DNA of 43,185 nt from Reclinomonas americana ATCC 50394 (GCA_048213135.1 PS015130.1:56785-99969), one strand, 5' to 3'; counted from the stretch's first letter, positions 4,701 through 41,123 are shown. Program-made: numbers and translations. Notes: generated by a model from the letters alone, not told the origin.

Positions 4701-7415
4701 GTTGAAGAAGGACCATTTGACAAGTTCCTCGGCCGCAAGAACCAGCATGTGCGAGTGTGCTGTCCGATTGTGCGACGGTATGGGACGGATCAGTGGGGTT
4801 TCGTGCATCTGTCGTTACTGGAGCATTGTGTGGCACGGCATGTATTTGCATGGGAGACGTGGGATGAGGAGAGGCGATTGACGATTCAAGACGTGCAGCA
4901 GCACGTGCTGGCAGTGCGGCTGCTGAATGATCGACCGCCGCTAGTTGAGCAGATTGCCGAGGTGGTGCGACGGTCACCTCGATTGCAAACGAGACTGTGG
5001 GAGGTGATTAAGATGTCACGAGAGATGGATGAGGAGGAGCGAGTGGTGACGGCAGCAGCGAATGCAGCAACGGTGTTGTGTGTGGCACAAGTGCCGTTCA
5101 GCGGGCGAGATCTGTCGGGTGTGCGAGTGAGGGGTGCGGATTTGAGGGATGCGGTGATGCACAGGACGGTGTGGAGGGGAGCGGATATGCGCGGGGTGAA
5201 TATGTGCATGGCGTATGCGAGGGAGGCGGATTTCAGGGGGGCCGATGTGACGGGGATGAAGTGGCCGAGGAAGCCGATGGTGGGGCACACTGACTGCGTA
5301 ATGTCTGTCGCTGCCACTCCCGATGGTCAGCACATTATTAGCGGGAGTATGGACAAAACAGTGCGTGTGTGGTCTGTGACGAGCGGCCAAGAGGTGCGAC
5401 GGTTCGAGGGACATGTCGGAGGTGTGCAGTCTGTCACCGTCACTCCCGATGGACAACACATAGTGAGCGGAAGTGGGGACAAATCCGTTCGAGTGTGGTC
5501 ACTGATAAATGGACAAGAAATGCGACGGTTTGAGGGGCACATNNNNNNNNNNNNNNNNNNNNNNNNNNNNNNNNNNNNNNNNNNNNNNNNNNNNNNNNNN
5601 NNNNNNNNNNNNNNNNNNNNNNNNNNNNNNNNNNNNNNNNNNNNNNNNNNNNNNNNNNNNNNNNNNNNNNNNNNNNNNNNNNNNNNNNNNNNNNNNNNNN
5701 NNNNNNNNNNNNNNNNNNNNNNNNNNNNNNNNNNNNNNNNNNNNNNNNNNNNNNNNNNNNNNNNNNNNNNNNNNNNNNNNNNNNNNACCCACCCAGCGTG
5801 CCCCTCCAGTCGCCGCACTTCTTCTCCACGCTCAACGTACCACACGCGCACCGTCTCGTCATCACTCGCACTCACAATGTGCTGGCCATCAGGAGTGATG
5901 GCGACAGAATTCACTACATCAGTGTGTCCCTCCAACCGACGCACCTCTACACCGGTTGCCAGTGACCACACTCGCACCGTCATGTCCCAACACCCACTCA
6001 CGATATGCTGACCAGAGGGGGTGACGGCAACTGACCACACTTCCCGGGAGTGACCCTCCAACCGTCGCACTTCTTCACCAGTCGCCAGTGCCCACACCCG
6101 CACTGTCTTGTCCCAGCTGCCACTCACGATGTGCTGACCGTCGGGAGTGACGGCAACAGCGTTCACCCCACCGTTGTGTCCCTCCAACAGTCTCACTTCA
6201 TCTCCACTCACGAGCGACCACACCCGCACAGTCCTGTCCCCGCTCCCACTCACGATATGTTGACCAGCGGGGGTGACAGCGACAGAATACACACAGCTGG
6301 AGTGTCCCTCCAACCGTAGCAATTCGACTCCGCTCACAAGGGACCACACGCGCACCGTCTTGTCCCCACTGCCACTCACGACGTGCTGACCATCGAGAGT
6401 GACAGCGACAGACAGCACTCCTCCCNNNNNNNNNNNNNNNNNNNNGTGCTCCGTCGCCGTCACCCCCGATGGTCAGCACGTGGTGACTGGCAGTCAAGAC
6501 AAGACGGTGCGAATGTGGTCGGCGACGACTGGTGAAGAGTTGCTGCGATTGGTGGGACACTTTTTTGGAGTATGGTCTGTCGCTGTTACCCCCGATGGCC
6601 AGTACATCGTGAGTGGCGGTGATGACGAGACAGTGCGGTTGTGGTCAATCACGAGTGGAGAGGAGGTGCGACGGCTTAAGGGACACATTGGTGCGGTGCA
6701 CTCGATTGCCGTCTCTGCTGACAGCCAGCACATTATCAGCGGAAGTGAGGACAAGACAGTGCGAGTGTGGTCACTGACGAGTGGCGAGGAGGTACGACGG
6801 CTGGCGAGGCATACGGGAGAGGTGTACTCTGTCGTCGTCACTCCCGACGGTCAGCACGTCGTAAGCGGTAGTCAAGACAAGACCGTGCGAGTGTGGTGTC
6901 TGGCGCGTGTGGAGGAAGAAGTGCAACAGCTGGAGGGACACACTGGAGGGGTGAACTCGGTTGCCGTTAGTCCAGACGGTCACCACGTTGTGAGTGGGAG
7001 CGCAGACAAGACCGTACGTGTGTGGTCGCTGGTGAGTGGGAGAGAATTGCGACGGCTGGAGGGACACACCTGTCCAGTGCGGTCTGCCGTCGTCACTTCC
7101 GATGGTCAGCACATTATCAGTGGCAGTGACGACAAGACAGTGCGCATGTGGTCGCTGGCGACCGGTGGGGAGGTGCAAAGTGTTGGTGTCGGCTTTGTTG
7201 ATTTGCAAGCGGCAAGTGCGGACGACAGTCAATGCTTAGATGGACACACTGGTCTGGTGACCTCAGTCGCGGTCTCTCCAGACGGTTCGCACATCGTAAG
7301 TGGCAGCGCGGACATGACGGTGCGCGTCTGGTCGTGCCACCACCACCGTTCCGCTCTCTTGGACCGTGTTTTCGGTTCTTTCCTTCCTGACTTTGCCGAT
7401 TCTCTCGGAGAGTAG
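1713..7415 (+). CDS. NLR-like STAND protein: UBL-like, UBL-like, HEPN (DZIP3-type), NACHT NTPase, pentapeptide repeats, 14 WD40 repeats
   Basis: Phase-consistent exons 1713-1727, 1804-2063, 2127-2229, 2311-2690, 2744-2905, 2997-3210, 3293-3491, 3568-7415, all GT..AG. Walker A GNSGAGKT at 3798-3821, Walker B LLLLDGYDE near 4025-4052, IITCR, NPFLL, WGFVHLSLLEH, AAANAATVL followed by pentapeptides (about 5097-5265), then GH...WS repeats. HEPN RNEVVH at 3323-3340. The model requires re-orienting 5787-6425. The NACHT-WD40 part is the firmest and the UBL calls are weaker. Confidence 0.8.
5282..7335 (+). repeat. Array of high-identity 126-nt (42-aa) WD40 coding repeats; 5787-6425 is in minus orientation as assembled
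   Basis: Repeated GHxxxVxSVAVTPDGQHIVSGSxDKTVRVW units: 2 before the first gap, 5 in the inverted block, 7 after. Confidence 0.92.
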
Positions 7416-18112: not shown

Positions 18113-19641
18113 ATGCGCGCGCCAACCGCTCTCCTCCTCTCCAGCGCACTGCTATGCACCTACTGCTTGCTACTACTGTTGCTGCTGCTGGGAGACACTG
18201 GTGAGTGCAATTTGATATCGCGAGAGTGGCGTCTTTGTGCAGCTCACGCTTGTTCACAGTGACGGCGACGGACCTGCCTACGTTTATCACTCTCGGCGAG
18301 GAGGTGCATGTGTCTGTTTGTGCATGTTGTTTTCGCGGCCATTCACTCACGCGTTTGTGCGCAGCGGCGGCGCTGTGTGTGCATGTTTGCCAGCGATAGC
18401 GAATCTCAAGTGGCCCACATTGCCCTCAGCATTCAGTGCCATCAGCGGTGGTGTCAGGCCGATCCCGACAGTGGGCGGGTGACCAACGTCTTTCGCTGCA
18501 CATTGCGCGATTACCCTCCCGACGACATTCGTCGCTTCCCCTCCAACGTCTATCGTGGTGCGTGGGAGCTGGAGAGCGACGAGGTGCAGGTGCAGGCGCG
18601 CGCTGGTCTCAACAATGTGTGCCCACCTGCAACCGACAATCTGCACAGCTGGGTGCGTTTGCCATGTGCGCGCTCCGGATCTGTTGTTGCCGGTGCTCAT
18701 TTTTTTTTTTTTTTGCGTTGCAGCTGATTGACGACGACGCCGAGATGCGTACGGTGTCGCTGGGCGTCTCGTTCCCGAATCTGCCGGAGGAGATAGCAGG
18801 CATCGCCGTGCGTAACTGGATGCAGGTGCCGATGAAGCTCCCCAACGCCAACGGCCTGCCGCTCGTCTCGTGCCTGATGATCACCACCGGTCGAGTGCAC
18901 CTGGCCATGCGAGCCGTGCACATGTTCACACAACAGACGTATCCGCGCCGCGAACTGGTCATCGTCACGCACGACGACGACTTGACAGAGTTGCAGTCGG
19001 CGCTGGCGGCGTTGGTGGGAACCGCAGGTGGCGAGGCGGATCGCATTCGTGTCAAACAGGTCGACCGACAGTCGGTGCCGACGCTTGGTGACATGCGCAA
19101 TGTGGCGGTGTCGGAGGCCGCCGGCGAGTTCGTGGCCACGTGGGACGACGATGATGTGTACGATCGCGATCGTGTGCGAGTGCAACTGATGGCGATCCTG
19201 GCGGCGGGTTCACGCGAATCGACGGTGGTCGGCTGCGTGCTGCATCGCGTGCAGGTTCGCCTGGCTGCCGATCTGACTGCCGACGAGGACGGTCGTGCGT
19301 TCTCCAAGGAGTCTGGCCTCGGCATTAGCCACCACCATCCGTGGGAGATGACCATGTTGATGTCCAAGGCACACATGGAGCCCTTCGCGTCGAAACAGCT
19401 GGGTGAGGACTCGGCGGCTTTGGAGGCCGTCAACCGCAAGTACTCGGTGGTGTGGCTGGACGACCCGGCACTGTACACATACTTTTACCACGGTGGCAAC
19501 ACGTGCAAGGCTCCGCACTTTGCACACATTTGGCGCTCCGTCTCCGTCACGTTCACCGGCACCGCTGCGACCCGGCTGGTGGCGCAGACGCAGAGAAGAG
19601 CCGGCCTCGACGCTGACTGGAACATTCCGCTGCGGCAGTAG
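18113..19641 (+). CDS. GT2 (GT-A fold) glycosyltransferase with signal/anchor and Cys-rich domain; divergent copy 0
   Basis: Hydrophobic leader exon, then RRRCVC...CHQRWCQADP...FRC...W...VCPP...W exon, then one long exon (18724-19641) with PLVSCLMIT, QTYPRRELVIV, TLGDMRN, GEFVATWDDDD (DxD), GED and YFYHGGNT. Confidence 0.85.
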
Positions 19642-19810
19642 TTTGAATAGTAATGAATGGTGATTGTAATACGTTCCCGCTTGCAAGCTTGCGCAGCAAC
19701 TTCGACGTTACCTCTGCCAACCTCGACCGCGGGAAATTTGCGCGCGAAAAAGTGCCGCTGCGCACTGATCAAGCAAAACAAGCGTAAGAGGTGCACACCT
19801 GCGGGCATCC

Positions 19811-22800
19811 ATGGCCACCACGCGCCCTGTGTGGCTGCCTCTCATTGCGTATGCTCTGCTTGGTGAGACTGCAGGCGGTTATTGGCACTCACACACACTC
19901 ACATCTTTTGCTGACTGTGTGTGTGTGCGTGTGTGTGTGCGTGCGTGTACGTGTGTGTGTGCCTGTGCATCGAGCAGTGTGTCTGGTGTACGCACCTAGT
20001 GGCGCACTCGCCCAGTCGTTTCGTCTCACTAGCGTCGCTTACGATGCACCATCAATCGCCGCGGGCGACCTGATTGGTTTCATTGTTGCTGTCGCACCCA
20101 CGGACGACGCCGACTGGACCTACGCCATCGGCAACTGCGTGCCCTTCTACGTGGACAGCACCTCGTCGCCACCCTCTCTGCGCGTGAGTCGTGCGGGTGA
20201 GAGTCGCGATGCACTCAGCGTGACCATTGTGGGCACCTACCGCTCCTCGGCCGTGGTGTCGCTGTCGTTTGTGATTCGTGTTCGTCCGCCTCTGTATGTT
20301 CTCAATGGGGCCGTCGACTACGCGAATGCGTCAGCTGCCGCCACACTGGTCACTGTGAGAGCGAGCTCCGGTCAAGTGCTGTCGGTGAGTGCAATGTGCG
20401 CGGCAGCAGCACTCGCAGCGGTTTCGCCCTGATGCTGACTGTGGTGTTTGCTGTTGCGCAGTCGGTGGCCATGAGCGGCACTCCTGGATACACTGCACTG
20501 GCGGTGCATCCGACCACCGGCACACTCTATACGATGCGTAACAGTGCGGCAAGTGCAGCCGCACTGCTGACCGTGGATGCAACGGTGCGTAGAGTAAATA
20601 TTTTTTCTGCAGTGAGTCGGTGCTCATGTGTTGTGGCCGCGGCTACAGTCGGGCACCACTGCCTTGGTGGGGTCTACCACCGGCATTCGTTCGTGGACTG
20701 GTCTGGCATTCCGCTCCGATGGTCAGCTGTACGGTTGGGCCGAGTATAACACGAGCAACGTGGCGGTGGATCGCCTGTACAGGATCGCGCTGCCCGGCAT
20801 GACTCTCACCGCCCTCTCACCGACACCGTGTCTGCAATACTGCGTCAGTGTGGCCATCTACTTTGATGCTAATGATGTTGCGTGAGTATCGCAGCACTGC
20901 GCCTTGTCTGTCTCTCCTGCTCATCATCACCATGACCACCACCGCTCGACAGAATCTCTACCGCAAATCCGGTATCGTGCTGATGCAGATGAATTCGGCG
21001 ACTGGCGTCGATGTCGGCTCTGCGCGCACGCTGGTCAGCGATCCCGGCTCGGATCCACTGGCCATTGTCGGTATCGACGGAGTGCTGTATGTCGGCCGTG
21101 GCGACGTCAACAATCAAGTCGTCGGCTCGCTGTACAGTGTGAACGAGTCCACGCTGGAGGTCAGCTTGACCGGCTCAGGAGCGTACGGCCGGTTCAGTGG
21201 AATGGCCTTTGGCGTCCCCGCTCCACTGGCATGCACCGCCGGTCTTGCTTGTCCTGGCGCGTGCGTACCCGATCCCAGCAACATTCAAGAGCCATTCATC
21301 TCCACTGTGAGCATGGTGCCGGCGGTGCCGACGTTGAACCAACCGCTCACTCTCGTGGTGATCGGCGGCAATTTTACGCCGTGCTCCGCTGTTTCACTGG
21401 AAGCCGCTGACGCGCCATGCAGCGGGTCGAACGCACCGAGTGTGTCCGCGCTCTCTGTGACTCGCACGCGGTGTAACGGCTGCTACTGTGCCGGCTTGGA
21501 GATCTCGCTGCTGCTCACCAGCAATGCCTCGTTGCACGTGTGCATCCGTCGCTCCGACGCCGCCTCGTACACCACCTCGGCCAAGTCCGCAGCGCCTCTC
21601 GTTGTTGGCAGCCGTTGCGTGCTGGCGCGCGCTGTGTGTTCCTACGTGGGAGATCAGCAATTGAGAGCTCACGCGTGTGTGCATTGCAGAAATTCGAACC
21701 GGTACTGTGGATTCTGCTTCGTTGCCGTCGTTTTCCAGCAGCGGCCTCGCGTCCAGCTCTGGTGGAACGCGCTCATGGACTTTTCCGATCACGTTTACGC
21801 CGCCATTTGGTGAGTGCCTGTGAGACTGTGCGTGTGCGGTATCGTTTGCTCACCGATTCCCCCGCCACCAGCTGGCACGCCGGCTGTCATGCTGGCCATC
21901 GCGGGTGTCACATTCGGCACCCCGCACTCGCGAATTTATTGCTCCTCCGAGGTTTGCTCGTGTTGTCATTCTACGACATTGTCGCATCTACTCACCTGCC
22001 ATGCGTGTGCGTCTGCCAAGGCCGTGCGGGCTGGACAGGTTATCTGCAAGTGCACGACGCATGGGTGAGTGTGTGTGGGTGCCTGTCTGACGACGCTTTT
22101 GTCAAGGAGCCTTGAACGCTCACGTCGTGGAATGCTGTCGCAGTGCCTCCGTCATCACTGCCCTGCACATTGCCTATTTGGCGCATTACACCAACAAGAC
22201 GAGTGAGACTCGCAACAATACGGGTACTCTGTTGTATTCGTCGCTGGAACGTCGCGACTGGTGCGTGTGTGGCTGCGACTCCACGAGTACTTCTCTGTCA
22301 CTCACTCACGAGAGAACGCCCAGGTGGAGTGGACCCACCACCGACGACGAGCTGGACATGCGCGTCATCACTGTGACCGAGCCACTGCTGGGGTATGAGA
22401 AGGGCCAGGAGGCGCCGTCATTAGTGTTTGGCGTGCGACACGCTCACCTGCTGCCGGAGACGGCCAACGCGTTCACCAGTCGCATGACATTTTCCAACTG
22501 GCAGTACTTTAGACACCAGTTGCGTGCCGCGTACTGCTCGGTCTGTGTGCGCGCTCATATTGTGTCCACTCATGAGGCCGTCGGCACGCAGAGTGTCAGC
22601 CGTCGACGACTGTCGCCTCAGTATGCTGGCGTTTTCGTGGATGGCATACCCACGTCCACCCACAAGTGGTAGCGGTATTGGCATGCAGTCTGGCGTGGGG
22701 CGCCTGCTGGCCGACGGTGCATGCAACACGCATGCCTTCGCGCCGGTTTTTGCCAGTCCTCCGCAAGTCGCAGCGTTCGCCCGCGGCTGGCAGTTTACGC

Positions 22801-23036
22801 AAAGCAGCAATGCTGCGAGCGGGATCAGCTTCGATTTGACCATTGGAGCGCAGTCAGAAACGGCAATCTCAGTGTGTCTCACTGCCACACCACCAGTCGC
22901 CGGTGGTCCCACAGGTGAGCGTGAATTCGAAGTTCATACTGGTGCAGCTGCTTTTTTCCTTGTCTGACCTGATGATGATTTCGTCTCTGCAGTGGTGTTT
23001 GTTGATTACTCGTGGGGCGCCATCGGGCAAGTATGA
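19811..23036 (+). CDS. Secreted multidomain protein: cadherin-like domain, beta-propeller-like repeats, Ig/IPT-like domain, three C-terminal H-type-lectin-like repeats
   Basis: Signal peptide MATTRPVWLPLIAYALL|VCLV. Cadherin-like GDLIGFIVAV...WTYAI...PFYVDS. Propeller-like ALAVHPTTGTLY and TGLAFRSDGQLYG. IPT-like PFISTV...LTLVVIGGNF. Lectin-like GTRSWTFPITFTPPF|AGTPAVMLAI...LHIAYLA and FAPVFASPPQV...DYSWGAIG. No C-terminal transmembrane segment is visible. The gene call is firmer than the domain calls. Confidence 0.65.
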
Positions 23037-23148
23037 AATGTGTAATTAAGGGGTGACGACGTCGTGCAGATGTGTCCTTCCGTCGTTGGTTGTCGTCCAA
23101 TCATGAATTTAATCATTTTTCGCGCCCATTTCGCGCGTGCAGCTTCCA

Positions 23149-24764
23149 ATGCTTATGTGGTGGCATTGGCTGCTATGTGTGGTCGCCGCCATCTTGCTGC
23201 ATGTGTGCGCGGTCGCAGCGGCCAATGGTATGAAGAGTGGTGGGTTTGAGAGCACCAAATTTCGATAATCATCGTGTGCACGCATGCATGCGCAGACCGC
23301 AATCCATCCTTCGTTACCGCGCATGAGACTGAGGTGCGTGGGCATATATGTGTGCGTGTGTGCGACAGAGAGAGAGAGAGACAGAGTTCGATTGTTTGAC
23401 TGCGTGAATCCGTACATGCTGCTGTGTGCGCGGCAGCGACGACGCTGCACGTGTCCCGATTACTTGGGATTGCTGCCCAGTGAAACCACCTTGTGTGGTA
23501 AACGATGGTGCCAGGTGGATCCTGACACTGGCCGCACTTTGGTGTTCCGGTGCACCCGGCGTCAATACGAGGGTAACACGCACCGACTGGATGTGAGCGC
23601 ACAGCACAGCGGTGGCTTGTGGCGACTGGATAAGGCCGTTCATACGCGACAGCATCTGGACAAGGTGTGTCTACCAGCCACGCACGGCATGCACGAATGG
23701 GTAAGTGCATGTGTTGTCGCATCAGCAATTGTATGCGCTCTCTCTGTGCTCAGTCCGCGCTCGTTGTCGCATTCAGCTGGCGACGAAAGGTGGTGCGTAC
23801 GCGTGCAACTTGAGGCACTATTGCATGTTTTGGTTGTTGTTGTCGTTGCTGTTGCTGTTGGTGGTCAACTTTTCCCACGTGTGCAGGCTTGGAGGATATT
23901 GCGTACACCATTCTTGAGCCAAAGGTGAACCCGGCAGTGGAGGCGACGCCGCTGCCGCCACTCACATCTGACGTGCCGATGGTGTCGTGCTTGCTGGTGA
24001 CGCGAGGCGGTGCGCGCCTCCGCTTGGCCATGCGCGCCGTGCACATGTTTATGCAGCAAACACATCCGCGGCGTGAGCTGCTGGTGGTGACGGAGACCGA
24101 GCATGTTGCGGAGCTCGCCGCAGCACTGGAGGAGTTGGTGGGCAACGCGGTGGAGCAGCAAGTGGCAGGCGTGCGGTTGATTGGCGTGGAGAGGAATGAG
24201 GCGCCGACACTCGGCGACCTGCGCAACTTTGCGATTCGTGAGGCCGTCGGCGACTACGTGACGCAGTGGGACGATGACGATGTGTACGACCGCGATCGCA
24301 TCACCGTGCAGCTCCACGTTCTGCGCAAGCTGCAGAGCGAACGTTCCGCCGACGCTCGGCCACTGGTCGGTATCGTGCTCTGTCGGGTGATGTTGTACGC
24401 CCCGGCCCTGCATGCCGATGCTGTGTCGATCACACATCGTCGAGTGTGGGAAGGCACGCTTCTGTGCCTGCGGTCGCACATGGCGCTGTACTCGTCGGAT
24501 GCACGCGGCGAAGACTCGGCTGCATTGAACAAGCTGCGAGAGAAGTACGACTTGGCGGCAGTTGACGCGCCCATCCTCTACTTGTACACCTTCCACGGCG
24601 ACAACACGTGGGACGACACGCACTTTCGCTACCACTGGTCAGCCGCATCGGTCAGCTTTTCTGGCCAGGCTGCACAGCTGCTGTTGGCGCAAGCCAAGGA
24701 GCGCGCCGGGCTCGATGGCAACTGGGAGATCCCGACGACGGCGTACCGTAATAGACGTCAATAA
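23149..24764 (+). CDS. Signal peptide, Cys-rich domain, GT2 glycosyltransferase; tandem copy 1
   Basis: Five exons including a 16-nt micro-exon at 23777-23792. MLMWWHWLLCVVAAILLHVCAVAAAN leader, RRRCTCP...CGKRWCQVDP...FRC, PMVSCLLVT, WDDDD, WEGT, GED, HGDNTW. Confidence 0.88.
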
Positions 24765-24933
24765 AGGGGTCGGATGCAGTGAGTGTGTGTGTGTGTGCGC
24801 GCACGCTGTGTGCAGCGATGTCGAGGAAAAAGAACGACGTCGGCCGACGTCGCCGCGAGTGACGACTTCGCCTAGAGTCCTGCCAACCACATTTCCCGCC
24901 ATTTCGACTCGTCGTGTACGCGGTGTTCCCCAC

Positions 24934-26551
24934 ATGCGTGTGTGGTGGCATCTGTTGCTGTGTGTGGTCGCCGCCATCTTGCTGCATGTGTGCGCGGTCG
25001 CAGCTGCCAATGGTATGGGGAGTGCGGTGAGTCCACGTTGGGAGAAACCAAACTGCGATAATCATCGTGTGCACGCAGACCGCAACCCCTCCTTCGTCAC
25101 CACGCAAGACAGTGAGGTACGTGTGCGTGCACGTGTGCGTGCGTATGTGTTTGTTTGTGTTGCGTCGTCTTGTACGTGTGAGTCTTCTGTTTGTTCGTGT
25201 TTGCCCCCGGCACGTACTGATCATGAAGTGTGCGACAGCGACGACGCTGCACGTGCCCCGATTACCTGGGGGTGCGGCTAAATGATACCACCATGTGTGG
25301 CCAGCGGTGGTGCCAGGTGGATCCTGACACTGGCCACATCCTTGCGTTTCGGTGCTTCCGGCATCGACAGGCGCGACATGCTTCTTTGATGAATGTGAGT
25401 GCCAATCATTCTGGTGGCGCGTGGCGGCTGGACAAGGTCATACACGCGCAGCAGTTAGTGGACAAGGTGTGTCCACCAGTGGAGCAGGAGATGACCGAGT
25501 GGGTGAGTGAGCGGCTCGTGTTGCGCGCATTTGTATTCTTTCGCACTGATGCATTGCACTGGCACCACTCACGCAAACAGCTAGCGTCGAAGGGTGGTAC
25601 GTACTGTACAGGTTTCAGTTGCTGCTGGTCAACTTTTTGCTGTGATTCATTCTGTTGCTGTGCACGTGCACAGGGTTGCAAGGCGTCGGTCACTTTATCC
25701 TCGAGCCAAAAGTGAAGCCGACGAAAAAGCCGACGCCGCTGCCACCACCCTCGTCTGACGTGCCGATGGTGTCGTGCTTGATGGTGACACGAGGCGGCGC
25801 GCGCCTCCGCTTGGCCATGCGCGCCGTGCACATGTTCATGCGGCAGACACATCCGCGGCGCGAGCTGCTGGTGGTGACGGAGACCGAGAACGTGGCGGAG
25901 CTCGCTGCAGCCCTGGAGGAGCTGGTGGGCGACGCGGTGGAGCAGCAAGCGGCAGGCGTGCGGCTGCTCGGTGTCGAGAGGAATGAGGCGCCGACACTGG
26001 GCGACCTGCGCAACCTGGCGATTCGTGAGGCCGTCGGCGACTACGTGACGCAGTGGGACGACGACGACGTGTACGACCGCGACCGCATCACCGTGCAGCT
26101 CCACTATTTGCGCAAACTGCAGAGCGAACGTTCCGCAAACGCTCGGCCACTGGTCGGTGTCGTGCTTCATCGGGTTATGTTGTACGCCCCGGCCTTGCAT
26201 GTCGATGCTGTGTCGATCACGCATCGTCGAGTGTGGGAGGGCACACTGTTGTGCCTGCGGTCGCACATGACACGCTACTCGTCGGATGCACGCGGCGAAG
26301 ACTCGGCTGCATTGGACAAGCTGCGGGAGGACTATGGCTTGGCGGTGATCGACGCGCCCATCCTCTACATGTACACCTTCCACGGCGACAACACGTGGGA
26401 CGACACGCACTTCCGCTACCACTGGTCAGCCGCATCAGTCAACTTCACTGGCCACTCTGCGGAGTTGCTGCTGGCGCAAGCCAAGGAACGCGCCGGGCTC
26501 GACGATAACTGGGAGATCCCGGCGACGGCATACCGTAATAGACGTAAATAA
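24934..26551 (+). CDS. Signal peptide, Cys-rich domain, GT2 glycosyltransferase; tandem copy 2
   Basis: Same five-exon structure (micro-exon 25581-25596), open reading frame, same motifs. Confidence 0.88.
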
Positions 26552-26690
26552 AGGGGTTGGAAGCAGTGAGTGTGCGTGTGGCGTATGTGGCGACGACGAG
26601 AAAAGACCACAGCGTCTACGTCGCGACTTCGCTGTTAGTCCTGCCTCATCACTCGTTCCCGCCATTCCGTGCGTGTAGCCAAGGTTTCTC

Positions 26691-28239
26691 ATGCTTTTGT
26701 GGTGGCATTTGCTATTGTGCGTGGTCGCCGCCACCGTGTTGCATGCAATCGCAGTCGCAGCTGCCAATGGTACGATGAGAGTGTGCTTTCGAAACCAAAT
26801 TGCAGTGCTCATCATCGTGCACACAGATCGCAATCCCTCTTTTGTTGCAATGCAAGACAATGAGGTGAGAGGAGAGGGAGAGAGTTCGTGTGTCTTGCAT
26901 GTGCATGTGTTTGTTTCGTTTCCAACACGTGCGACAGCGCCGACGCTGTCTGTGCCCCGATTACTCGGGAGCGGTGTTCCTTGATATGACGATGTGTGGC
27001 CGACGATGGTGCCAGGTGGACCCGGAAACTGGCCGCACGCTCGTGTTTCGGTGCACGTACACACAAAACAGCGACACAAACTTCTACCGACGAGGCGTGG
27101 ATCTGACGCACAGCGGTGGCTCGTGGCTGCTGGAAAGAGACGTACACGCACAGCAGCAAGTCAACGAAGCGTGTCCACCAGTCGCGCACGACATGAGCGA
27201 GTGGGTGAGTGGGACTTGTCGCAGCGGTTCTTGCATGTATTTGTGTGCGCTCAGTTTGCCGTCGATGTCACTTGCAGCTGGTGGCAAAGGGTGGTGTGTG
27301 ACTGGATGTCAGTTGCTGTTGATCAACTTCTCTCTGTGATTCACTCTGTTGCTGTGCACAGGGTTGCAGGGCATCGGTCACATTATCCTCGAGCCGAAGG
27401 CGAAGCCGGCAGTGGAGGCGACGCCGCTGCCGCCACTCACTCTTGACGTGCCGATGGTGTCGTGCTTGCTGGTGACGCGAGGCGGTGCGCGTCTCCGCTT
27501 GGCCATGCGCGCCGTGTACATGTTCATGCAGCAGACACATCCGCGGCGTGAGCTGCTGGTGGTGACGGAGACCGAGCATGTCACAGAGCTCGCTGCTGGC
27601 TTGGAGGAGCTGGTGGGCGACGCGACGGAGCAGCAAGCAGCAGGCGTGCGGTTGATTGGCGTGGAGAGGAACGAGGCGCCGACACTCGGCGACCTGCGCA
27701 ACCTGGCGATTCGTGAGGCCGTCGGCGACTACGTGATGCAGTGGGACGACGACGATGTGTACGACCGCGATCGCATCAGCGTGCAGCTTGGTTCGCTGCG
27801 AACGCTGCAGAGCGAACGCCCCGCAGACGCTCGCCCACTGGTCGGTGTCGTGCTTCATCGAATTCTGCTCTACTCCCCCGTCCTTCAAGTCGACGCTGTG
27901 TCAGTCACGAATCGTCGAGTGTGGGAAGGCACGCTGTTGTGCTTGCGGTCGCACATGACGCTGTACTCGTCGGATGCTCGCGGCGAAGACACTGCGGCGT
28001 TGGACAAGCTGCGAGAGAAGTACGATTTGGCGGTGATTGACGCGCCCATCCTCTACTTGTACACCTTCCACGGCAACAATACGTGGAACGACACGCACTT
28101 CCGCTATCATATGCAGGCAGCATCGACCAGTTTCACCGGCCACTCTGCAGAGTTGCTGCTGGCGCAAGCCAAGGAGCGCGCGGGACTCGACGACAACTGG
28201 GAGATCCCAGCGGCAGCATACCGTAATAGACGTCAATAA
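26691..28239 (+). CDS. Signal peptide, Cys-rich domain, GT2 glycosyltransferase; tandem copy 3
   Basis: Same five-exon structure (micro-exon 27278-27293), same motifs. Confidence 0.88.
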
Positions 28240-28326
28240 ATGGTGGCGAGATAGATGATACTCGAATCTTATTTCTCCGACGTTTGCAGTATGTCCGCCG
28301 TCGAGGGACACATAATAATATTGATC

Positions 28327-30010
28327 ATGCGTGTGTTGTGGCAATTGCTGCTGTGTGTGGTCGCCGCCATTGTGCTGCATGCATGCGCAGTCGCGGCTGC
28401 CAACGGTGAGAATGTGGTGCGGTTTTGCGAAACATGCAAACAAACTGATTGCTCATGATCATGATGTGCATGCGCATATGCATGGCATGCGCATGCACGC
28501 AGACCGCAATCCATCCTTCACTACCACGCAAGACAATGAGGTGTGCATGTGTGTGTGTGTGCGCGCGTGCGTAAGTGTGCACTAGTATGTTCTCTCTGTT
28601 CGTGAGTGTGAGTGTGAGTGTGTGGTGTGCTTCGGAGTGGCTTTCGGTTTGCTCTAATGTGTGTCCGTGATGCAACAGCGACGGCGTTGCGTGTGCCCCC
28701 ACGACTCGGGAGTGAAGTCGCTGGATCCCGTGATGTGTGGCCAGCGGTGGTGCCAGGTCGACCCACTCACTGGCCGCACGCTGGTGTTTCGGTGCGCCTA
28801 CGCAGAATATCACAACACACTCTTCTACCGACGAGCCCTGGATGCAACGTACTACGGTGGCCTCGGCGCGTGGCGACTGGACAGAGATATACACGCGCAG
28901 CAGCAAGTCAACGAGGTGTGTCCGCCGGTTGACCATGATATGAGCGAGTGGGTGAGTGGTTGTGTTTTGTCGCAGCGTCACTTGCACGTTGGTTTTCTGT
29001 GTGTTCTCAGTTCGCACTCGGTGTCGCGATCGCTGCTTGCAGCTGGTGGCGAAGGGTGGTATGTGAAGCTTGAAAGCACACACTTTATATCGCTGGTTTC
29101 GGTCTGCCGACTCAGTTGCGCTGCGTGCACAGGGTTGCAGAACATCGGCTATCTCACCGTCGTGCCTACTGCGAAGCCGGCAGTGGAACCGACGCCACAG
29201 CCGCTGCCGTCGTCGACAGTGCCAATGGTGTCGTGCTTGCTGGTGACGCGAGGCGGTGCGCGTCGGAGTATGGCCATGCGCGCCGTGTACATGTTCATGC
29301 AGCAGACACATCCGCGGCGTGAGCTGCTGCTCGTGACGGAGACCGAGCATGTCGCGGAGCTCGCTGCAGCACTGGAGGAGCTTGTGGGCGACGCGGCGGA
29401 GCAGCAAGTAGCAGGCGTGCGGTTGATTGGCGCCGAGAGACACGAGGCGCCGACACTCGGCGACCTGCGCAACCTGGCGATTCGAGAGGCCATCGGCGAC
29501 TACGTGATGCAGTGGGACGATGACGATGTGTACGACCGCGACCGCATCCGCGCGCAGCTCCACATTCTGCGCACTCTGCAGAGCGAACGCCCCGCCGACG
29601 CTCGGCCACTGGTCGGTGTCGTGCTTCGCCGGGTCCTGCTGTACGCCCCGGCTCTGGATGTCCACTCGGTGTCAGTCTCGTATCGTCGAGTGTGGGAGGG
29701 CACACTGTTGTGCCTGCGGTCACACATGACACGCTACTCGTCGGATGCACGCGGCGAAGACACCGCCGCGTTGGTCAAGTTGCAAGAGATGCACGATGTG
29801 GTGATGATAGACGCGCCCATACTCTACTTGTACACCTTCCACGGCAACAACACGTGGAACGACGAGCACTTCCACAAGCACGTGCAGAGTGCGTCGGTCA
29901 CCTTCTCTGGCCACGTTGCAGAGTTGCTGCTGGCGCAAGCCAAGGAACGCGCCGGACTCGACGACAACTGGGAGATCCCAGCTGCAGCATACCGTAATAG
30001 ACGTAAATAA
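28327..30010 (+). CDS. Signal peptide, Cys-rich domain, GT2 glycosyltransferase; tandem copy 4
   Basis: Same five-exon structure (micro-exon 29043-29058), same motifs. Confidence 0.88.
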
Positions 30011-30136
30011 AGGGGTCGCTGCGGATGCAGTGCACGCACGCGTGTGGCGACAAGAAGGAGCGACGGCGGGACTTCCGACGGAGTCCTGCCAAAACATCAC
30101 CCATTCCCGCCATTCAGTGCGCACTTGGTGTTCCCC

Positions 30137-31840
30137 ATGCGTGTGTGGTGGCATTTGCTGCTCTGTGTGGTCGCCGCCATTGTGCTGCATGCATGCGCAG
30201 TCGCGGCTGCCAACGGTGAGTGTGGTTGCGCGCTGCAAACTGAAATCAGATTGATTATGATGCACACATTCTCATATGTTGGCATGCGTGCAGACCACAA
30301 TCCCTCCTTTGTTGCCACGGCAGACATTGAGGTGTGTGTACATAAGTGTGTGTGAGAGAGAGAGATGGTACGCTTCTCTCTGTTGGTGTGACTGTGACGA
30401 GTGTGTGTGTCGTTTTACGTGTTTGTGTGTCAATGCGCGTAGCTGCGCACCCACTGCTGCTGGTTTGCTCTGCGTGCGACAGCGGCGACGTTGTGTGTGC
30501 CCCCACGACTCGAGAGTGGAGTCGCGCGATCCCATGATGTGTGGCCAGCGGTGGTGTCAGGTCGACCCACTCACTGGCCGCACGTTGGTGTTTCGATGCA
30601 CTTATCCGGAGGAACGCGATCTAGAAACACTCTTCTACCGGCGAGGCGATGATCTCACGTTTCTTAGCGGCCGCGGCATATGGCGACTGGATAGAGACAT
30701 ACACGCGCAGCAGCAAGTCAACGAGGTGTGTCCGCCAGTTGACCACGATATGAGTGAGTGGGTGAGTGAGTCTTCTCGCAGCGCATCGTCTCTTGCTGTT
30801 GCGCATGCATGTTGTCTCTCTGCGTACATGTGCTCAGTTTCGTGCTCCCCGTCACTTGCAGCTGGTGGCAAAGGATGGTATGCAACGCTTGAAACACAGG
30901 AACTCAGCGGTGAACTGTTGGCTCACCGGTTTGCACAACCACAGGCCTCGGAGTGCGGGCAGAAAGCGCCGGCATCGGTTTCCTCGTCGTCGAACCTACG
31001 GTGAAGCCGGCAGTGGAGGCGACGCCGCTGCCGCCACCCTCGTCGAACGTCCCGATGGTGTCGTACTTGATGGTAACACGAGGCGGCGCGCGCCTCCGCT
31101 TGGCCATGCGCGCCGTGTACATGTTCATGCAGCAGACACATCCACGGCGTGAGCTGCTGGTGGTGACGGAGACCGAGCATGTTGCGGAGCTCGCTGCTGG
31201 GTTGGAGGAGTTGGTGGGCAACGCGGCGGAGCTGCAAGCGGCAGGCGTGCGGTTGATTGGCGCCGAGAGACACGAGGCGCCGACACTCGGCGACTTGCGC
31301 AACCTGGCGATTCGTGAGGCCGTCGGCGACTACGTGACGCAGTGGGACGACGACGATGTGTACGACCGTGACCGCATCACCGTGCAGCTCCACGTTTTGC
31401 GCACGCTGCAGCGCAGTCGTTCCGCCGACGCTCGCCCACTGGTCGGTGTCGTGCTTCATCGAGTTATGCTGTACGCCCCGGCTCTGGATGTCCACTCGGT
31501 GTCAGTCGCATGTCGCCGAGTGTGGGAAGGCACGCTGCTGAGTCTGCGGTCGCACATGACACGCTACTCGTCGGATGCACGCGGCGAAGACACAGTGGCG
31601 TTGGACAAGCTGCAAGAGAATTACGACTTGGCGGTGATCGATGCGCCCATCCTCTACTTGTACACGTTCCACGGCAACAACACGTGGGACGACGAACACT
31701 TTCAGGAGCTCGTGCAGATGGTGTCAGCGAGCTTCTCTGGCCACGCTGCACAGCTGCTGTTGGCGCAAGCCAAGGAACGCGCGGGACTCGACGACAACTG
31801 GGAGATCCCGGCGACGGCATACCGTAATAGACGTCAATAA
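30137..31840 (+). CDS. Signal peptide, Cys-rich domain, GT2 glycosyltransferase; tandem copy 5
   Basis: Same five-exon structure (micro-exon 30862-30877), same motifs. Confidence 0.88.
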
Positions 31841-31942
31841 ACGGTGACGATGGTGAAGGCTGTGCGCGATCGCTCACATCGTCTTGACAGGCTCAGCGGT
31901 GGGGCAACGTCGGTCGGTCTGCGTCCCACACAACGATTTGCG

Positions 31943-34846: not shown

Positions 34847-34918
34847 CGTGTGAAGCGCAAAAGTGAAGCAAACCCCCACCTCTCCAATTGGTCGACTTTC
34901 GTTTGTCACTTTGTTTGC

Positions 34919-36742
34919 ATGTTTTGGCTGAGCATTCTGTGCGCCCTGCTCGTCGCGTGTGGCGTGCTGGCGCTGATCGACCAGTGGACGGTGTGCATTA
35001 TTCACACTCGCACACACGCATGCATCTCCTCACCTGCACACACACACACACACAGCGTCGCAAGTCTGTGGAGAATGCATCGGCGACGGCCTCTGCTTCC
35101 GCAGCCAAGCCCACGCACGATCAAAAGGCGTTCCGTCGCTTCCGGCTGACGTACCTGGTGGCGTTCTTCTTGGCCTTTGGTTCGCTCCCTGTCGCGCGAT
35201 ATGCAGCAGTGAGCTTCCCGCCATTTAATCGCCATATGCATTCGCCAGGTGCCGACTGGCTGCAGGGTCCCTACGTGTATCAGCTGTACTCGGCGTATGG
35301 CTTCTCGCGCGGCACCATTGGTCTGCTCTTTATCGCCGGCTTTGGCTCGAGCTTCCTGTTTGGCACCGTGTTTGGATCGCTGGTCGATGTCTTGTTGCGT
35401 TGTTGCATGTCGACTTCTCCGGCCCACGCTGCGTCGTGGCATTGACACGCTTGGTGGGGCAGCGGGCGACGGGCAGGCGCGTTGCTGTACTGTGCGCTGT
35501 ATGCAGTCGCGTCGTTGACCAAGCACGTCAAGCTGTTCCCGGTGCTGCTGATCGGACGAGTGCTGGCCGGTGTCGCCACCTCGCTCCTCTACAGCGCTTT
35601 CGATTCGTGGATGGTGGCCGAGCACCACCAGCGCAAGTTCTCCACCGAGTCGTTGAGTAGCACGTTTGCGGTCGCCAACATCGGCAACTCGTTGGTGGCC
35701 ATCACCGCGGGCGTCGTCGCGTATTTTGTGCAGGCGTCATTCGGTGTGTCGCCCACCTTCTCTTCCATTCGTCTTGGTGAGCGCGCCCCACTGAGTGTGC
35801 GCGTGCAGGTCTGGTGGCGCCATTCGACGTGGCGGCCGTGCTCCTGGTGTTGTGTGCCGTGGTGGTGGCCATGTACTGGAACGAGAACTACGGGCAGGCC
35901 TCGCACAGCAGTCTCCAGCTCATTCGTCGCGCCCTGGTCTTGTCGCGCGCTGGTACACAAAGCACATACTCCACTTTTTTCCGATCGTCTTTCCCCTCCC
36001 TCTTACGTGTGCGACGAAAAATCACAGATTTCCGCATCTGGTGCCTGGTGGTGGCCGACGGACTCTTCCAGGCCTCCATGTTCACCTTTGTGTTCATGTG
36101 GACACCGGCGCTGGAGGAGTTGGAGCCGGAGATCCCGCATGGTGTCGTCTTCTCGACGTTTATGGTGGCCTGCATGCTCGGCTCCATGATCTTCAAGTTG
36201 CTGCGCTTGCCCGTTGGTCTCGGATTCTCGGCGGTCCTTGCCGTGGCGTGCCTGTGCATGATTGTGTCGACGGTCACCACGGTTTGTGTTGCTCCGAATA
36301 AGTGTGTGCGCGCGCGTTGCTGGACAACTCTGACCCACTGCACGCAGAGTGCCGTCGTCATGTACGCGGCCTTCCTCGGTTTCGAGGTGTGCGTCGGTGC
36401 ATTCTGGCCGTCGGTCGGCGTGTTGCGCAGTCGCCTGTACCCAGACGAGTGCCGCTCGGCGTTTATCAACATCTCCCGTTTGCTCATCAATGGCTTGGTG
36501 GTGTCCCTGCTGTGCAATGTTGCGCGGTGGCCACGAGAATGTCTTTGTTGTTGTCGTTGTTGTCTGCTGACTCGTGTGCTCGTGTCAGATTGGTGCACTG
36601 CAGACGCACGTGGTGTTCCTTCTCGGGAGCGTCTCGCTCGGTGTCTCCCTGGCTGCCTCGCTCGTGCTGCTCGGACGTGGCGACGAGGCCAAAGAGTCGC
36701 ATGCACCACCCGTCAAGGCCAACGACAAGAGCACCAAAGTAG
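34919..36742 (+). CDS. MFS transporter, MFSD5/MOT2 (molybdate-anion transporter) family
   Basis: GADWLQGPYVYQLYSAYGF, LFIAGFGSS, GSLVDVFGRR, GRVLAGVATSLLYSAFDSWMVAEH, APFD, WNENYG, SMFTFVFMWTP, PHGVVFSTFMVACMLGS, FEVCVGAFWP. Seven GT..AG introns. Confidence 0.9.
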
Positions 36743-36779
36743 AATAAACCAGATCTCCCTTCGTACAAACATCGTCGTT

Positions 36780-38881
36780 TTACCGGAATGCAGTCATGGT
36801 GCGTGTCGACAGTTCGCTGAGAATGTCGTGCGACACCTGACTGCACCAGGTGAGAGCTGTCAACAGAAAAACTGTGAGTTGAACGACAGAGAGAGAGTGA
36901 GGCGTCGACAATGGCACACCAAATTGTCTCAGTCGCGGGAGCATGGCCACCATTTTCCGCACACCATCTGGAGACGGACATGAGAGGCGACAACAACAAT
37001 AGTGAAGAGAGGGGCAGGCTGGCACTCACCATTGGTCACGTGGTGATTCCACGAAAAGTTCACCCTGTGACACCCAGTATGATGATCAGAAAAGGAATTG
37101 TGTTGTGCTGCTGACGAATTGCACTCACATGCGTAGCATTGAGCAGCGGCTTGCAACCTCGAGGAAACCAGCTTCGCCAACCTGCTTGCAACCCTCCATG
37201 ATCAACTCTTGCAGTCGCGGACAACTCGCCGCCAGCACCCCACAGAACAGATCCGTCACCTGCCCGCCAGCGGAAAAATGAAAAAAGCGACGAGCACGCC
37301 ACGCAACGCACACGCAGCACGCACCGGACACCAACTGACGTCCAGCATGGTGAGCTGCGTGCACGCTTCGACCACCTGACACAGACTCTCGTCGGTGAGA
37401 TCGTCGCAGCGACCGAGGTCGAGGTGCGTCAGATGCGTCAGGTGCTTCATGTACGCCGCCCCCACATCGGTAAGGTGGGGTGCCACACGCAGTGCGAGCC
37501 ACGTGAGTTCCGTACACCGCACGCTGAGCATCATGATCAACGTGTCTGTCGTGCATTGGGGTCGACGTCACCGAGTGAGGCACACTGCAAGCAGCACCAA
37601 CAAAAGGCAGACGGCACAACTCACCGTCCACACACTCGCACCAGGAGAGATCGAGCTCGGTGAGCTTGATAAGCTCCTGTGGAATCTCTGCAATGGCGTC
37701 GGTGTCGATCATGTCGCACTCGGGGAGGTACAGACGCGTCAAGCACGGACACTTCTTGCAGAGGGTGTTGATCGCCGTGTTGGTGACCTGCATGCAGCTT
37801 TTTTTTGGTACAAAACCACTCAGCGAGCGACTGCGAGTGCATGTTCTGCACACCTGACAGCCACGCAAGCTCAGCGTGCGCAGCGTCGCACCACTGCTGG
37901 ACACCAGCAGGCGAATGCACAGAGTGCTGACGGCGCGCACGCCATCCACCTTGACCTCACGCAGCGCGGTGAATCGCTGAAACATATCCGCAAACGCAGC
38001 CTCCTCGTCCATCCGTGTGCAAAACGACAAGTCAAGCGACTGCAGCTGCGCGTGTAATCTCTCATTGTTGGCCAGGCTCCACACGGGCGCGCACTCCAGT
38101 TGTGAACACTGCAGACAACACATCGTGGTGAGTATGCCACGAGCAGCAACAGCAGCAGCAGGATTCGCGCTTCATCCGCAACTTGCACCAGCGACAGGCT
38201 CGTCAGCGACGCCGGCGCCGATCGGCAAAAAAGCGAAGCGCCCGCATCGCTCACATGAGAGCAGGCCACCATTTCCAGCGTGGTCAGCGACGAGCACACA
38301 CGCGCCACAGTGGCCACAAACAGGTCATTGACAGTCTCGTCGCACCCACGCAGTCGGAGTACCGTCAGTGAGCCACCCATGGTTGTCGCCAGCATGCGCA
38401 GCGGTGCATCCGGGGCCGGGAAGGCCACACGCAAGTGGTGCAACTGCTTGCAGCTCTCGGCAACAACACCGAACACCTCGGCCGACGCCGCCACCTCGCC
38501 CGACAGCCACAGCTCCTCCAGTCCCTGCTCGCCGAGCTCGCTCACCAGTCGTTCCACTGCCATATACGCAGAACAGCGGTGAGGGAGTGAACCAGTGGAC
38601 TCTTGTTTGAGACGGACGCAACATGCAGAACGACTTGTCTCGGTCACCTATCGCACACAGCAGTGAGTGAATGTGATGATCAGACAACTGAATCACGATG
38701 TGCAAACGCAACTGTCGGTGGTAGGCGAAGCGACATCACACCTCCACTGCCGCACCGTTCGCGCACATGCTCCAGCACGTCCTCATCGATCTCGCAGCAG
38801 CACGTCAGGTTCGGCTCGGTGGAATCATTGGCCTCCACACACAGATCGACACGCTGCACAGAGCATTGTGTGTATGGATGC

Positions 38882-39187: not shown

Positions 39188-41123
39188 TCAGCACCATGTC
39201 GGATTGTGCTCCCAGTTGTACGCGTCGCACCACGTCTGCAATTGTGGATTGTGCAGGCCAAAAAGCGCAAAGGTCTCTTGCAAAAAGTCCTCATCAAGAC
39301 AGGGAGCCTGGCGCACGCAGTCGCACTGGTGAGCGTGTGGCACACACACACAATGCGGACAACGACAGCGGCACAACAACACGCACTCTTGCCATGTTCT
39401 GGATGCTAAAGTCGGGAATGATGGGTGTGTGCTCCATCTGGATAAACGACGACAGCACCGACGGCGATCGAATGCACTTGTCGTAGTAGCCGGGTGCCAC
39501 CGTGTAGTGCTGCAGCCGCTTGTTCATGCCAGCCACAGCAGTGCTGAATGTGGATGCGCGGGTACCGATAAAAACCTGCCAGTGGCGATGAGTGGACACG
39601 CAGCATGTCACCCTCCCTGCTCATTTTCAGGTCACGCAACCTCCGCCCGCGATGCCACCAGCATGTCGATCCACGCTGCATCCAGTTTGCCATCGGGGCC
39701 ACGACCCTTGGCGTCTTTGTTCCACACCACCATATCGCCAAGCATACTCTGCGCCTTTTCCAACACCGACGGCTGATCGGTGGCCACGTACACCTTGACC
39801 TTGTCCTCGTCCCACTTGTGGAAGCGGATGAGGCTCTCCACGCACTCGAAAAACACCTTGACCTGGTCCTCCTCGCCCTTGGGGAAGTACAGATCGTTGT
39901 CGCCGATGCGTCCACGACGAATGTGGATGGCCACCTGTCGTCGGCATCGCAGGTGTGAGCGAGTGTGGAGAACGAGAGGAGATGGTGAGGGGCCCACCTT
40001 GCAGCCGTCGGAGCCACACGATTTCCGCTCCACTTCGTCGGCAACCTCTTTCCAGTGTGTATTCGGTTGGAAGAACCACTGCCAGATGTGATTGAAGCCG
40101 TAGCCAATGTGCTTGTGCGTCCACTCACGCATGCTGGGGTTCAACAGCACCTGCATTGCGTGTGTGTGCGTGATGAGTTGATTGGCACAGCGCAGTGGAG
40201 GAAAGAAAGAGAGGGAGAGACGCAACAACATTCATCGGCAGCGCTCCTGACGGTTTCAGCATCCATACCGTGTCGTCGCCGGGCACTGCCTGACGGAAGA
40301 ACACCTGCATGCACAACATTATCGGTTGAGCTCAACTCCCGATGCCTGCCGCCGACGACGAGCGAGTGGAACACAAAACCTTCGGATCATCGAGGTTCGC
40401 CTTGGTGTAGTCGCTGCACATCGCATCGTGGTACTCGCCTGTTGACACGCCGAATGAGTCCAGAGAGGGGAGACGAAAGAAGAGAAGGGGGGGAGTTCGA
40501 GACGCAACACCAGGACGAGTGATGCCTCCTCCAATACGGCGCCGTGTGCAGTACCGCCTTGGCTTGATCTCTGTACGGCTGCGGCATGTGCTCGANNNNN
40601 NNNNNNNNNNNNNNNNNNNNNNNNNNNNNNNNNNNNNNNNNNNNNNNNNNNNNNNNNNNNNNNNNNNNNNNNNNNNNNNNNNNNNNNNNNNNNNNNNNNN
40701 NNNNNNNNNNNNNNNNNNCTTCGGCAGTGTCTGCGCATCGATCGACGAGTCCATCATACTATCGTGCAACTGGCGATAGGCAAACAGTGTCTCCTTGGCT
40801 GGCGCCACCAAGTCCTTGTCGCACACCGCCGACTGCGGCGGTGCAAACTTGGGTCGCGTCTGTCGCGCACACTCATCCTTCCAACTGACACGACGCGGTC
40901 TGGCAAACACGGGTGAGGGCAGGCTGGTCAGGTTCTGGAAGACCAGCACCGCTGCAAGCGAGTGTGCGTGCGCGTGGGCGAGGGCGTGAGTGTGCGAGGA
41001 GGGAGGGGCGGCATGTGTGACACTTGCGCGCACACACGCACCAAATACTGCAAATGCCACAAAGAAGAGGAGGAATGCTCGTCCACGAGGGGATATGTTG
41101 CGCCACCAGGATGGCGCGCTCAT
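39188..41123 (-). CDS. Type II membrane GT-B fucosyltransferase-like protein (alpha-1,2/alpha-1,6/O-FucT superfamily); contains an assembly gap
   Basis: N-terminal anchor AFLLFFVAFAVF|AVLVF, motif I VAIHIRRG, motif II VYVATD, motif III AWIDMLVASRAE|VFIGTRASTFS. Confidence 0.8.

Follow-up and report, generated by a model that had tools for sequence, protein, structure and literature searches.

The best-known coupling of a glycan writer to a glycan reader is that of the polypeptide GalNAc-transferases (GT27), secretory-pathway enzymes in which a GT-A catalytic domain is fused to a ricin-type lectin domain. A different arrangement of such elements occurs in Reclinomonas americana ATCC 50394, within a 43-kb stretch of DNA (43,185 nucleotides; GCA_048213135.1 PS015130.1:56785-99969), which is referred to here as the window. 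Positions 18113-31840 of the window hold seven genes. Six of these, u0 to u5, encode glycosyltransferases (GTs) of the GT2 type. The seventh, MG, lies between u0 and u1; its product is a secreted multidomain protein that ends in a module assigned by homology to the H-type lectin family. In GT27, writer and R-type lectin form one polypeptide, whereas here the lectin-type protein comes from a separate gene and another lectin family, and the extra domain carried by the protist GTs matches no lectin family. The locus thus joins two known kinds, a tandem GT family and an H-lectin-type secreted protein. It is ordinary to moderately interesting as a cluster, and its layout is real. The best explanation of the whole, to which we give a probability of about 0.6, is that a bacterial-type GT2 has undergone lineage-specific tandem expansion in an intron-rich protist, with the lectin gene as a neighbor by local duplication history.

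The closest sequence relatives found for the six enzymes are bacterial multi-GT proteins, namely P0002 of Azospirillum and homologues from Streptomyces, Chloroflexota, cyanobacteria and Parvibaculum. Over ~250 residues they are 33-39% identical to the protist enzymes, with a GT2 core that has the motif Q-W-D-D-D-D and an HG-x-NTW block at the C-terminal end in common. In P0002 and at five of five bacterial loci examined, however, the GT2 sits in the middle of ~780-1300 amino acids (aa) that include two or more other GT domains, whereas the protist enzymes stand alone, have introns and a leader, and carry an orphan six-cysteine domain instead. Among solved GT2 enzymes, the chondroitin synthase of Escherichia coli K4 (2z86/2z87), heparosan synthase B (8vh7) and SpsA of Bacillus subtilis (1qg8) are homologous in the nucleotide-binding half, including the DxD motif (E 1.8e-19 to 3.9e-14). 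Good alignment is confined to this N-terminal half (~130 residues); the acceptor half is particular to each family, and thus neither donor nor acceptor can be transferred from the solved enzymes.

The H-type lectins (PF09458) include Helix pomatia agglutinin and the Dictyostelium discoidins I and II. The last MG module, module C, and a database relative of MG, P0049, match the family hidden Markov model, although module C does so below threshold and no solved member is matched by sequence. The partner domains also differ, being a discoidin domain in the discoidins, an IAP domain in Acanthamoeba and an orphan 490-aa N-terminal half in MG. Acanthamoeba castellanii is described as having one protein with multiple H-lectin copies (PMC4053784), and tandem lectin-like modules in one protein are a feature that MG has in common with it. 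Trypanosomatid UDP-glycosyltransferase families are described, in the available part of the source, as tandem, lineage-specific and linked to cell-surface glycosylation (PMC5853035). Like the protist locus, these are tandemly expanded GTs. Unlike it, they belong to another GT family, and that part of the source mentions no embedded lectin gene.

The window is part of a draft eukaryotic contig with a GC content of ~58-60% and five N gaps, and an Rfam scan of it gave zero matches. All seven genes of the locus are intact, contain introns and lie on the + strand:

18113..19641, + strand: u0, divergent GT2; 4 exons (18113-18200, 18260-18303, 18365-18652, 18724-19641); 445 aa, made up of leader, Cys-rich domain and GT2 core
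19811..23036, + strand: MG, secreted multidomain protein; 11 exons, 820 aa, intact open reading frame (ORF)
23149..24764, + strand: u1, tandem GT2; exons 23149-23227, 23296-23333, 23437-23700, 23777-23792, 23887-24764; 424 aa
24934..26551, + strand: u2, tandem GT2; exons 24934-25012, 25079-25116, 25239-25502, 25581-25596, 25674-26551; 424 aa
26691..28239, + strand: u3, tandem GT2; exons 26691-26769, 26827-26864, 26938-27204, 27278-27293, 27362-28239; 425 aa
28327..30010, + strand: u4, tandem GT2; exons 28327-28405, 28503-28540, 28679-28951, 29043-29058, 29133-30010; 427 aa
30137..31840, + strand: u5, tandem GT2; exons 30137-30215, 30294-30331, 30483-30761, 30862-30877, 30963-31840; 429 aa

A first-pass annotation of the window had proposed seven consecutive co-oriented genes with short spacers and an N-terminal signal or anchor on every product, and the spliced models agree with it on each count. 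The ends are exact to the base, with the ATG of u0 at 18113 and the stop of u5 at 31840. From u0 to u5, the intergenic spacers measure 169, 112, 169, 139, 87 and 126 nt (19642-19810, 23037-23148, 24765-24933, 26552-26690, 28240-28326 and 30011-30136). Beyond u5 the gap is shorter still: the next ORF, for a G-patch protein, has its first ATG only 9 nt (31841-31849) past the u5 stop. Spacers of 87-169 nt and 9 nt leave scant room for a 3' untranslated region (UTR), a promoter and a 5' UTR, which raises the question of co-transcription. A block of the form AGGGGT[CT]G...GCAGTG opens three of the spacers. Each of the seven proteins has a single N-terminal hydrophobic stretch (Kyte-Doolittle 15-mer 2.56-2.91) and, by the same measure, no later segment that resembles a transmembrane helix. 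These leaders are predicted to be secretory, either as cleaved signals or as signal anchors. Searches of the window with tblastn recover exactly six copies of the catalytic exon (E 3e-52 to 0). A copy of the Cys-rich exon precedes each of the six, with none elsewhere in the window, and this six-copy arrangement is not due to chance.

The GT models were built by hand on the conserved blocks of a DNA alignment of the six units; GT opens, and CAG closes, each of the diverged segments between these blocks. In the five tandem copies, u1 to u5, exons 1, 2, 4 and 5 are always 79, 38, 16 and 878 nt long. Averaged over pairs of these copies, nucleotide identity is 68-86% in exons and 38-52% in introns, and the introns vary in length. 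The shortest exon is a 16-nt micro-exon:

23777-23792, 25581-25596, 27278-27293, 29043-29058, 30862-30877, + strand: micro-exon (exon 4) of u1 to u5; equal length in all five copies, 69-94% identical

The introns on both sides of the micro-exon have diverged, and its omission would break the frame. Exon lengths that stay constant and frames that stay open while the introns drift are good comparative evidence for the GT models. Across the seven genes, the 33 modeled introns are 57-151 nt long. Thirty of them open with GT[AG]N[GA] and are preceded by an exonic G. The other three, all in MG, open with GTTGCG (20877, 21614 and 22519), and the exon upstream ends in T, C or A. Read with the bacterial code (table 11), the span is a jumble of overlapping, broken frames. 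An interpretation of these frames as frameshifted pseudogenes was dropped when copy-to-copy alignment showed short introns.

The six enzymes are GT-A/GT2-type glycosyltransferases, an assignment that is solid at the sequence level. PF00535, the Pfam GT2 family, is the top match in all three copies scanned, and its scores for u1 (28.6 bits) and u0 (25.0 bits) exceed the gathering (GA) threshold of 23.3. All 35 sequences of an alignment, the 6 window copies with 29 database relatives, keep the DxD-type motif W127-D128-D129-D130 unchanged. A profile of the family matches 18 chains in the PDB at E<=0.1, with the chondroitin synthase K4CP (1.8e-19), heparosan synthase (1.1e-16) and SpsA (3.9e-14) at the top. 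Together with the leaders, these results uphold the first-pass description of six secretory GT2 enzymes.

A search of 5.8 billion proteins returned 45 relatives with 29-42% identity, and their matches span only the C-terminal catalytic part. Seven of the 45 carry an organism name, and all seven are bacterial. Prokaryotic genomes, scanned at one per species, contain at least 521 loci that encode relatives at 33-39% identity. Genomic context was checked in the best 80 of these loci. Six were picked for taxonomic spread and five of the six were domain-scanned, the Azospirillum locus (L001) being left out. At each of these five, a large multi-GT protein carries the related GT2 as its middle domain, in the order Gly_transf_sug - GT2 - Anp1. 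The precomputed domains of P0002, from plasmid pTA1.1 of Azospirillum sp. B2RO_4 (L001), are the same (PF04488, PF00535 and PF03452). The scanned loci (L043, L007, L011, L016 and L018) encode three- to five-domain "assembly-line" GTs of the type PF04488-PF00535-PF03452, sometimes with an added GT1/GT28 or GT4. In a cyanobacterial metagenome-assembled genome (L043:5167-12641), the GT relative is followed by genes for a GT4, a GT32-like protein, an epimerase/dehydratase and a GT10 fucosyltransferase. That a GDP-mannose-dehydratase-like gene and a GT10 fucosyltransferase adjoin the GT relative at this locus is no more than an anecdote.

A quick maximum-likelihood tree, which also contains bacterial and metagenomic sequences, unites all six window copies in a single clade (SH-aLRT 100) with u0 as the sister of u1 to u5. 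The tree is midpoint-rooted and does not give the direction of transfer. The core of u0 is 42-43% identical to those of the other copies (43% to u4). That the nearest named relatives are all bacterial could point to bacterial contamination, a very recent transfer or decaying pseudogenes, an explanation that is highly improbable and already contradicted by the intron structure. Each copy has 3-4 spliceosomal introns with the donor types of the genome itself, as well as a leader of eukaryotic type and an additional Cys-rich exon. The six ORFs are intact with dN/dS (omega) below 1, and the neighbors, which encode G-patch, MFS_5 and leucine-rich repeat (LRR) proteins, are eukaryotic. Because of the spliceosomal introns, the leaders and the extra domain, the protist GT genes are clearly not contamination. 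The expansion in the protist is the preferred account of the array, and what it adds is modest and new: a bacterial-type GT2 subfamily domesticated in a eukaryote, with introns, a 16-nt micro-exon, a leader and a six-fold amplification.

The second modest novelty is the domain that precedes the catalytic part:

28679..28951, + strand: exon 3 of u4, given as the example; orphan six-cysteine N-domain of ~90 aa, encoded by each of the six GT genes

Six invariant Cys residues and an RWCQxDP motif are present in 6/6 copies. No Pfam family matches the domain at E<=10, the ESM Atlas gave no usable match, and a PDB profile search gave no meaningful one. Patterns for the domain matched metagenome contigs, and a relative was confirmed in none of them. 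None of the 45 database relatives of the GTs covers it. On these searches it is treated as an orphan, previously undescribed domain.

The two halves of the tandem enzymes differ in how far they have diverged. Among u1 to u5, the catalytic cores are 79-89% identical in amino acid sequence, with dN/dS of 0.19-0.33 and dS of ~0.3. The Cys-rich domains are 45-81% identical, with dN/dS of 0.23-0.49 and dS of 0.5-1.8. Omega below 1 in both parts means that both are under purifying selection, and dN/dS among these copies gives no sign of positive selection in either. The first-pass annotation had the enzymes build variable surface glycans. This is not established by cores so similar and under purifying selection; the only strongly diverged part is the Cys-rich N-domain, and its omega is likewise below 1. 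Because dS is lower in the core than in the Cys-rich domain of the same gene pairs, the pattern suggests that gene conversion homogenizes the core, in the 3' part of the gene, while the N-domain retains older differences.

MG is encoded by 11 exons, separated by 10 introns of 62-115 nt, without a frameshift:

19811-19862, 19978-20384, 20462-20584, 20649-20876, 20953-21613, 21690-21809, + strand: MG exons 1-6
21872-22064, 22144-22260, 22324-22518, 22592-22914, 22993-23036, + strand: MG exons 7-11

The leader and the spliced model agree with the first-pass view of the middle gene as a secreted multidomain protein. The coordinates it had given for this gene, 21690 and 23036, are a real exon start (the acceptor of the intron 21614-21689) and the MG stop, respectively. 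Residues 17-202 of P0049 align with MG 621-818 in one BLASTP segment of 201 columns (35% identity, E 2e-24). This alignment crosses three MG splice junctions and so supports both the gene model and the homology. Homologue support is confined to aa 621-818, and the N-terminal half (19811-21613) is a predicted model alone. Residues 31-490 match no Pfam family, and a homologue search with exon 5 (20953-21612, 220 aa) found none. MG has seven N-x-S/T sequons and Ser/Thr-rich linkers. Two other models of the gene were set aside. An automated prediction placed a junction at 20293/20419 and an extra intron at 21183-21278; it was replaced by the hand models, as the finder was inconsistent across paralogues. 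A frameshift in exon 21872-22064 (frame 0 to 2, with a GTGTGG donor) was rejected, since the splice phases fit frame 0 with canonical GTGAGT donors.

The C-terminal third of MG is composed of three modules of 118, 110 and 102 residues:

21690..22183, + strand: module A, aa 491-608; H-lectin-like core motif TFTPPFAGTPAVMLAIAGVTF and a Cys-rich insert
22184..22649, + strand: module B, aa 609-718; conserved module whose homologue in P0049 is the N-terminal domain (E 5e-13)
22650..23036, + strand: module C, aa 719-820; H-type-lectin homologue

Module C is an H-type-lectin homologue by sequence, because P0049 passes the H_lectin family and aligns with MG. P0049 scores 41.5 bits against PF09458 (E 1.4e-10, profile positions 3-67 of 67), which passes GA, and module C scores 39-40 bits against the C-domain of P0049. 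In protein-language-model space, P0049 neighbors clusters of H-type lectins (score 0.92). By analogy with the family, module C probably binds a Gal/GalNAc-type sugar. The family of tandem lectin-like modules is very sparsely sampled. An exhaustive HMMER search of 1.84 billion representative proteins gave seven matches, of which two, P0048 and P0049, are real relatives of the lectin modules; the others are low-information stretches of bacterial Ig-like repeat proteins. Both relatives come from contigs of ~1.4 kb, a length that shows no gene neighborhood, and a homologue search with P0049 returned itself alone. Structure prediction with AlphaFold2 gave a pLDDT of 43.6 for the module C exon and of 38.5 for P0049 with a 3-row alignment, both too poor to use. 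Foldseek comparison of the latter model with the PDB returned nothing at E<=0.001, from a model too poor to count.

The triple H-type lectin of the first-pass annotation fares differently from module to module, in that module C is homologous to the family, module A has a 21-residue motif only, and module B has no detectable similarity to C. The profiles compared hold 1-3 sequences. Module A, whose reading frame is fixed by splice phase, shares 21 columns with the C family (hhalign P 0.009; phmmer 5-8 bits). MG may instead end in a single H-type lectin domain, C, with two unrelated, beta-rich modules in front of it as spacers, a tentative reading that falls somewhat short of even odds. It agrees with the lack of detectable similarity between B and C in these profiles (hhalign E 0.61, phmmer ~0 bits), with the hhalign E of 0.32 between A and B, and with the zero Pfam matches on the A and B exons. 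Pfam also places H_lectin only once in P0049 (residues 134-201), though both B-like and C-like modules are present there. This reading has to contend with the similar size of the three modules (~100-120 aa). By eye, the modules also open with x-[ST]-G-x and close with a strand of the form hydrophobic-x-[IW]-[AM]-Y/A, and A has an F-x-P-x-F-x-x-x-P-x-V core in common with C. In addition, profiles of so few sequences have little power. The insert of module A (21920-22060) holds nine cysteines in ~40 residues, and modules B and C are without it.

Under the preferred explanation, a bacterial-type GT2 family with a GT-A fold and DxD motif would have expanded in tandem within this lineage. The product of each copy is made up of the leader, 13 residues from the 38-nt exon 2, the ~90-aa six-Cys domain and a ~290-aa catalytic domain. 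We infer that the secretory pathway is where the enzymes work, in its lumen, and that they would move a sugar, with inversion, from a nucleotide-sugar donor to a glycoconjugate that is secreted or at the cell surface. The Cys-rich domain, in which the divergence between copies lies, is probably a disulfide-bonded stem or an acceptor-recognition module. The unrelated MG gene lies between u0, the oldest copy, and its five younger counterparts; its product is predicted to be secreted and is lectin-homologous in the last module. Most likely, the lectin gene and the GT array are neighbors through local duplication history, and what their products would have in common is the secretory route.

Several points weigh against this explanation or the assignments it builds on. 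The models of all seven genes are predicted from genomic sequence and from comparison with paralogues and, in MG, with P0049, and the CAG acceptors of all introns were partly imposed in modeling. PF00535 scores 20.8 bits on u4, below GA, with a query that was a read-through ORF including intron translation. NCBIfam gives only far-sub-threshold resemblances, to the WcaA, TuaG and PglI equivalogs, which indicate neither donor nor acceptor. For the module C exon, PF09458 is the only Pfam match and falls below GA (E 0.0064, 17 bits against 24); the query was one exon, without the last strand, which is encoded on the next. Neither P0049 nor a 3-row profile matched a solved H-type lectin in the PDB. 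Lastly, MG has been kept between u0 and u1 to u5 since an old duplication, which could mean selection for linkage.

Such linkage is at the center of the proposal made in the first-pass annotation, in which the six GT2 enzymes build related surface glycans and MG binds or carries them, in coat assembly, self-recognition or evasion. Were enzymes and lectin to act on one and the same glycan, the locus would be a physically linked set of glycan-making and glycan-binding genes, a rare case among eukaryotes, and would offer a way to learn how the surface coat of a free-living protist is built or recognized. MG lies on the same strand as the GTs, and the spacers on its two sides are only 112-169 nt long. 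The distance between u0 and the tandem copies places their split long ago, so the linkage around MG has lasted. All seven products are predicted to enter the secretory pathway, the sequons and Ser/Thr-rich linkers mean that MG itself could be glycosylated, and the GT N-domains differ strongly between copies. Nevertheless, the tie between GTs and lectin rests on adjacency, the sole link between them, and both "triple lectin" and "writer-reader module" are unproven as descriptions. The similar cores give no hint of diversified sugar specificities, and lectin homology can be demonstrated in one module of three. A lectin module within 6 kb of a GT relative was found by tblastn, at low sensitivity, in 0 of the 80 nearest bacterial loci. 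A Pfam scan of 31 flanking ORFs from five of these loci found no H_lectin. Patterns for the lectin modules matched metagenome contigs, and a relative was confirmed in none; the literature searched contained no report of a GT array with a lectin gene inside it. On balance, a functional module of this kind is improbable.

A more specific version combines the lasting linkage with the contrast between N-domains and cores. In it, a long-lived cassette holds an H-lectin-type protein inside a bacterially derived, intron-invaded GT2 array. The N-domains would diversify while gene conversion keeps the cores alike, so that the copies direct the same sugar transfer to different acceptors and the lectin reads the product, making this a "glycan identity" locus. 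This version is more doubtful still.

Less remote, though still on the unlikely side, is the idea that MG is a secreted lectin of the pattern-recognition type that binds microbes or prey and has nothing to do with the neighboring enzymes. H-type lectins are discussed as candidate pattern-recognition receptors in Acanthamoeba (PMC4053784, PMC11377244). Amoebal multi-H-lectin proteins are discussed there as microbe sensors, and such a role needs no link to neighboring genes. MG is predicted to be secreted, its only candidate membrane anchor is the leader, and a NACHT-WD40 gene lies in the same window. On the other side, the large N-terminal half of MG is an orphan and its binding activity is putative.

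Downstream of the array lies a gene that the first-pass annotation had called fucosyltransferase-like:

39350..41123, - strand: fucosyltransferase-like (GT23-like) gene; leader present; approximate model, interrupted by an assembly gap (40596-40718)

Its resemblance to GT23 makes the label a fair one at the level of sequence. The central exon scores 14.6 bits against NodZ (GA 28.3, E 0.015) and 11.7 bits against FUT8_N_cat (GA 27.6, E 0.1). In the PDB, eight of its ten matches at E<=10 are to FUT8 (E ~0.1), with the HxRR and VYxATD motifs aligned. The gene thus resembles the family with sub-threshold scores. However, it is on the opposite strand, convergent to the array, with three unrelated genes (G-patch, MFS_5 and LRR) in between. 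The MFS_5 transporter gene (34867-36983, + strand; Pfam E 9e-27) is split by introns. The gene for the LRR protein is at 37125-38171 on the - strand, and the strand switch is near 37 kb. At the other end of the window, 3477-7415 encodes a large NACHT-like NTPase that continues into a long run of WD40 repeats, with two assembly gaps inside. Within it, at 5327-6472, a WD40-encoding stretch is present on the opposite strand too, which is probably an assembly problem.

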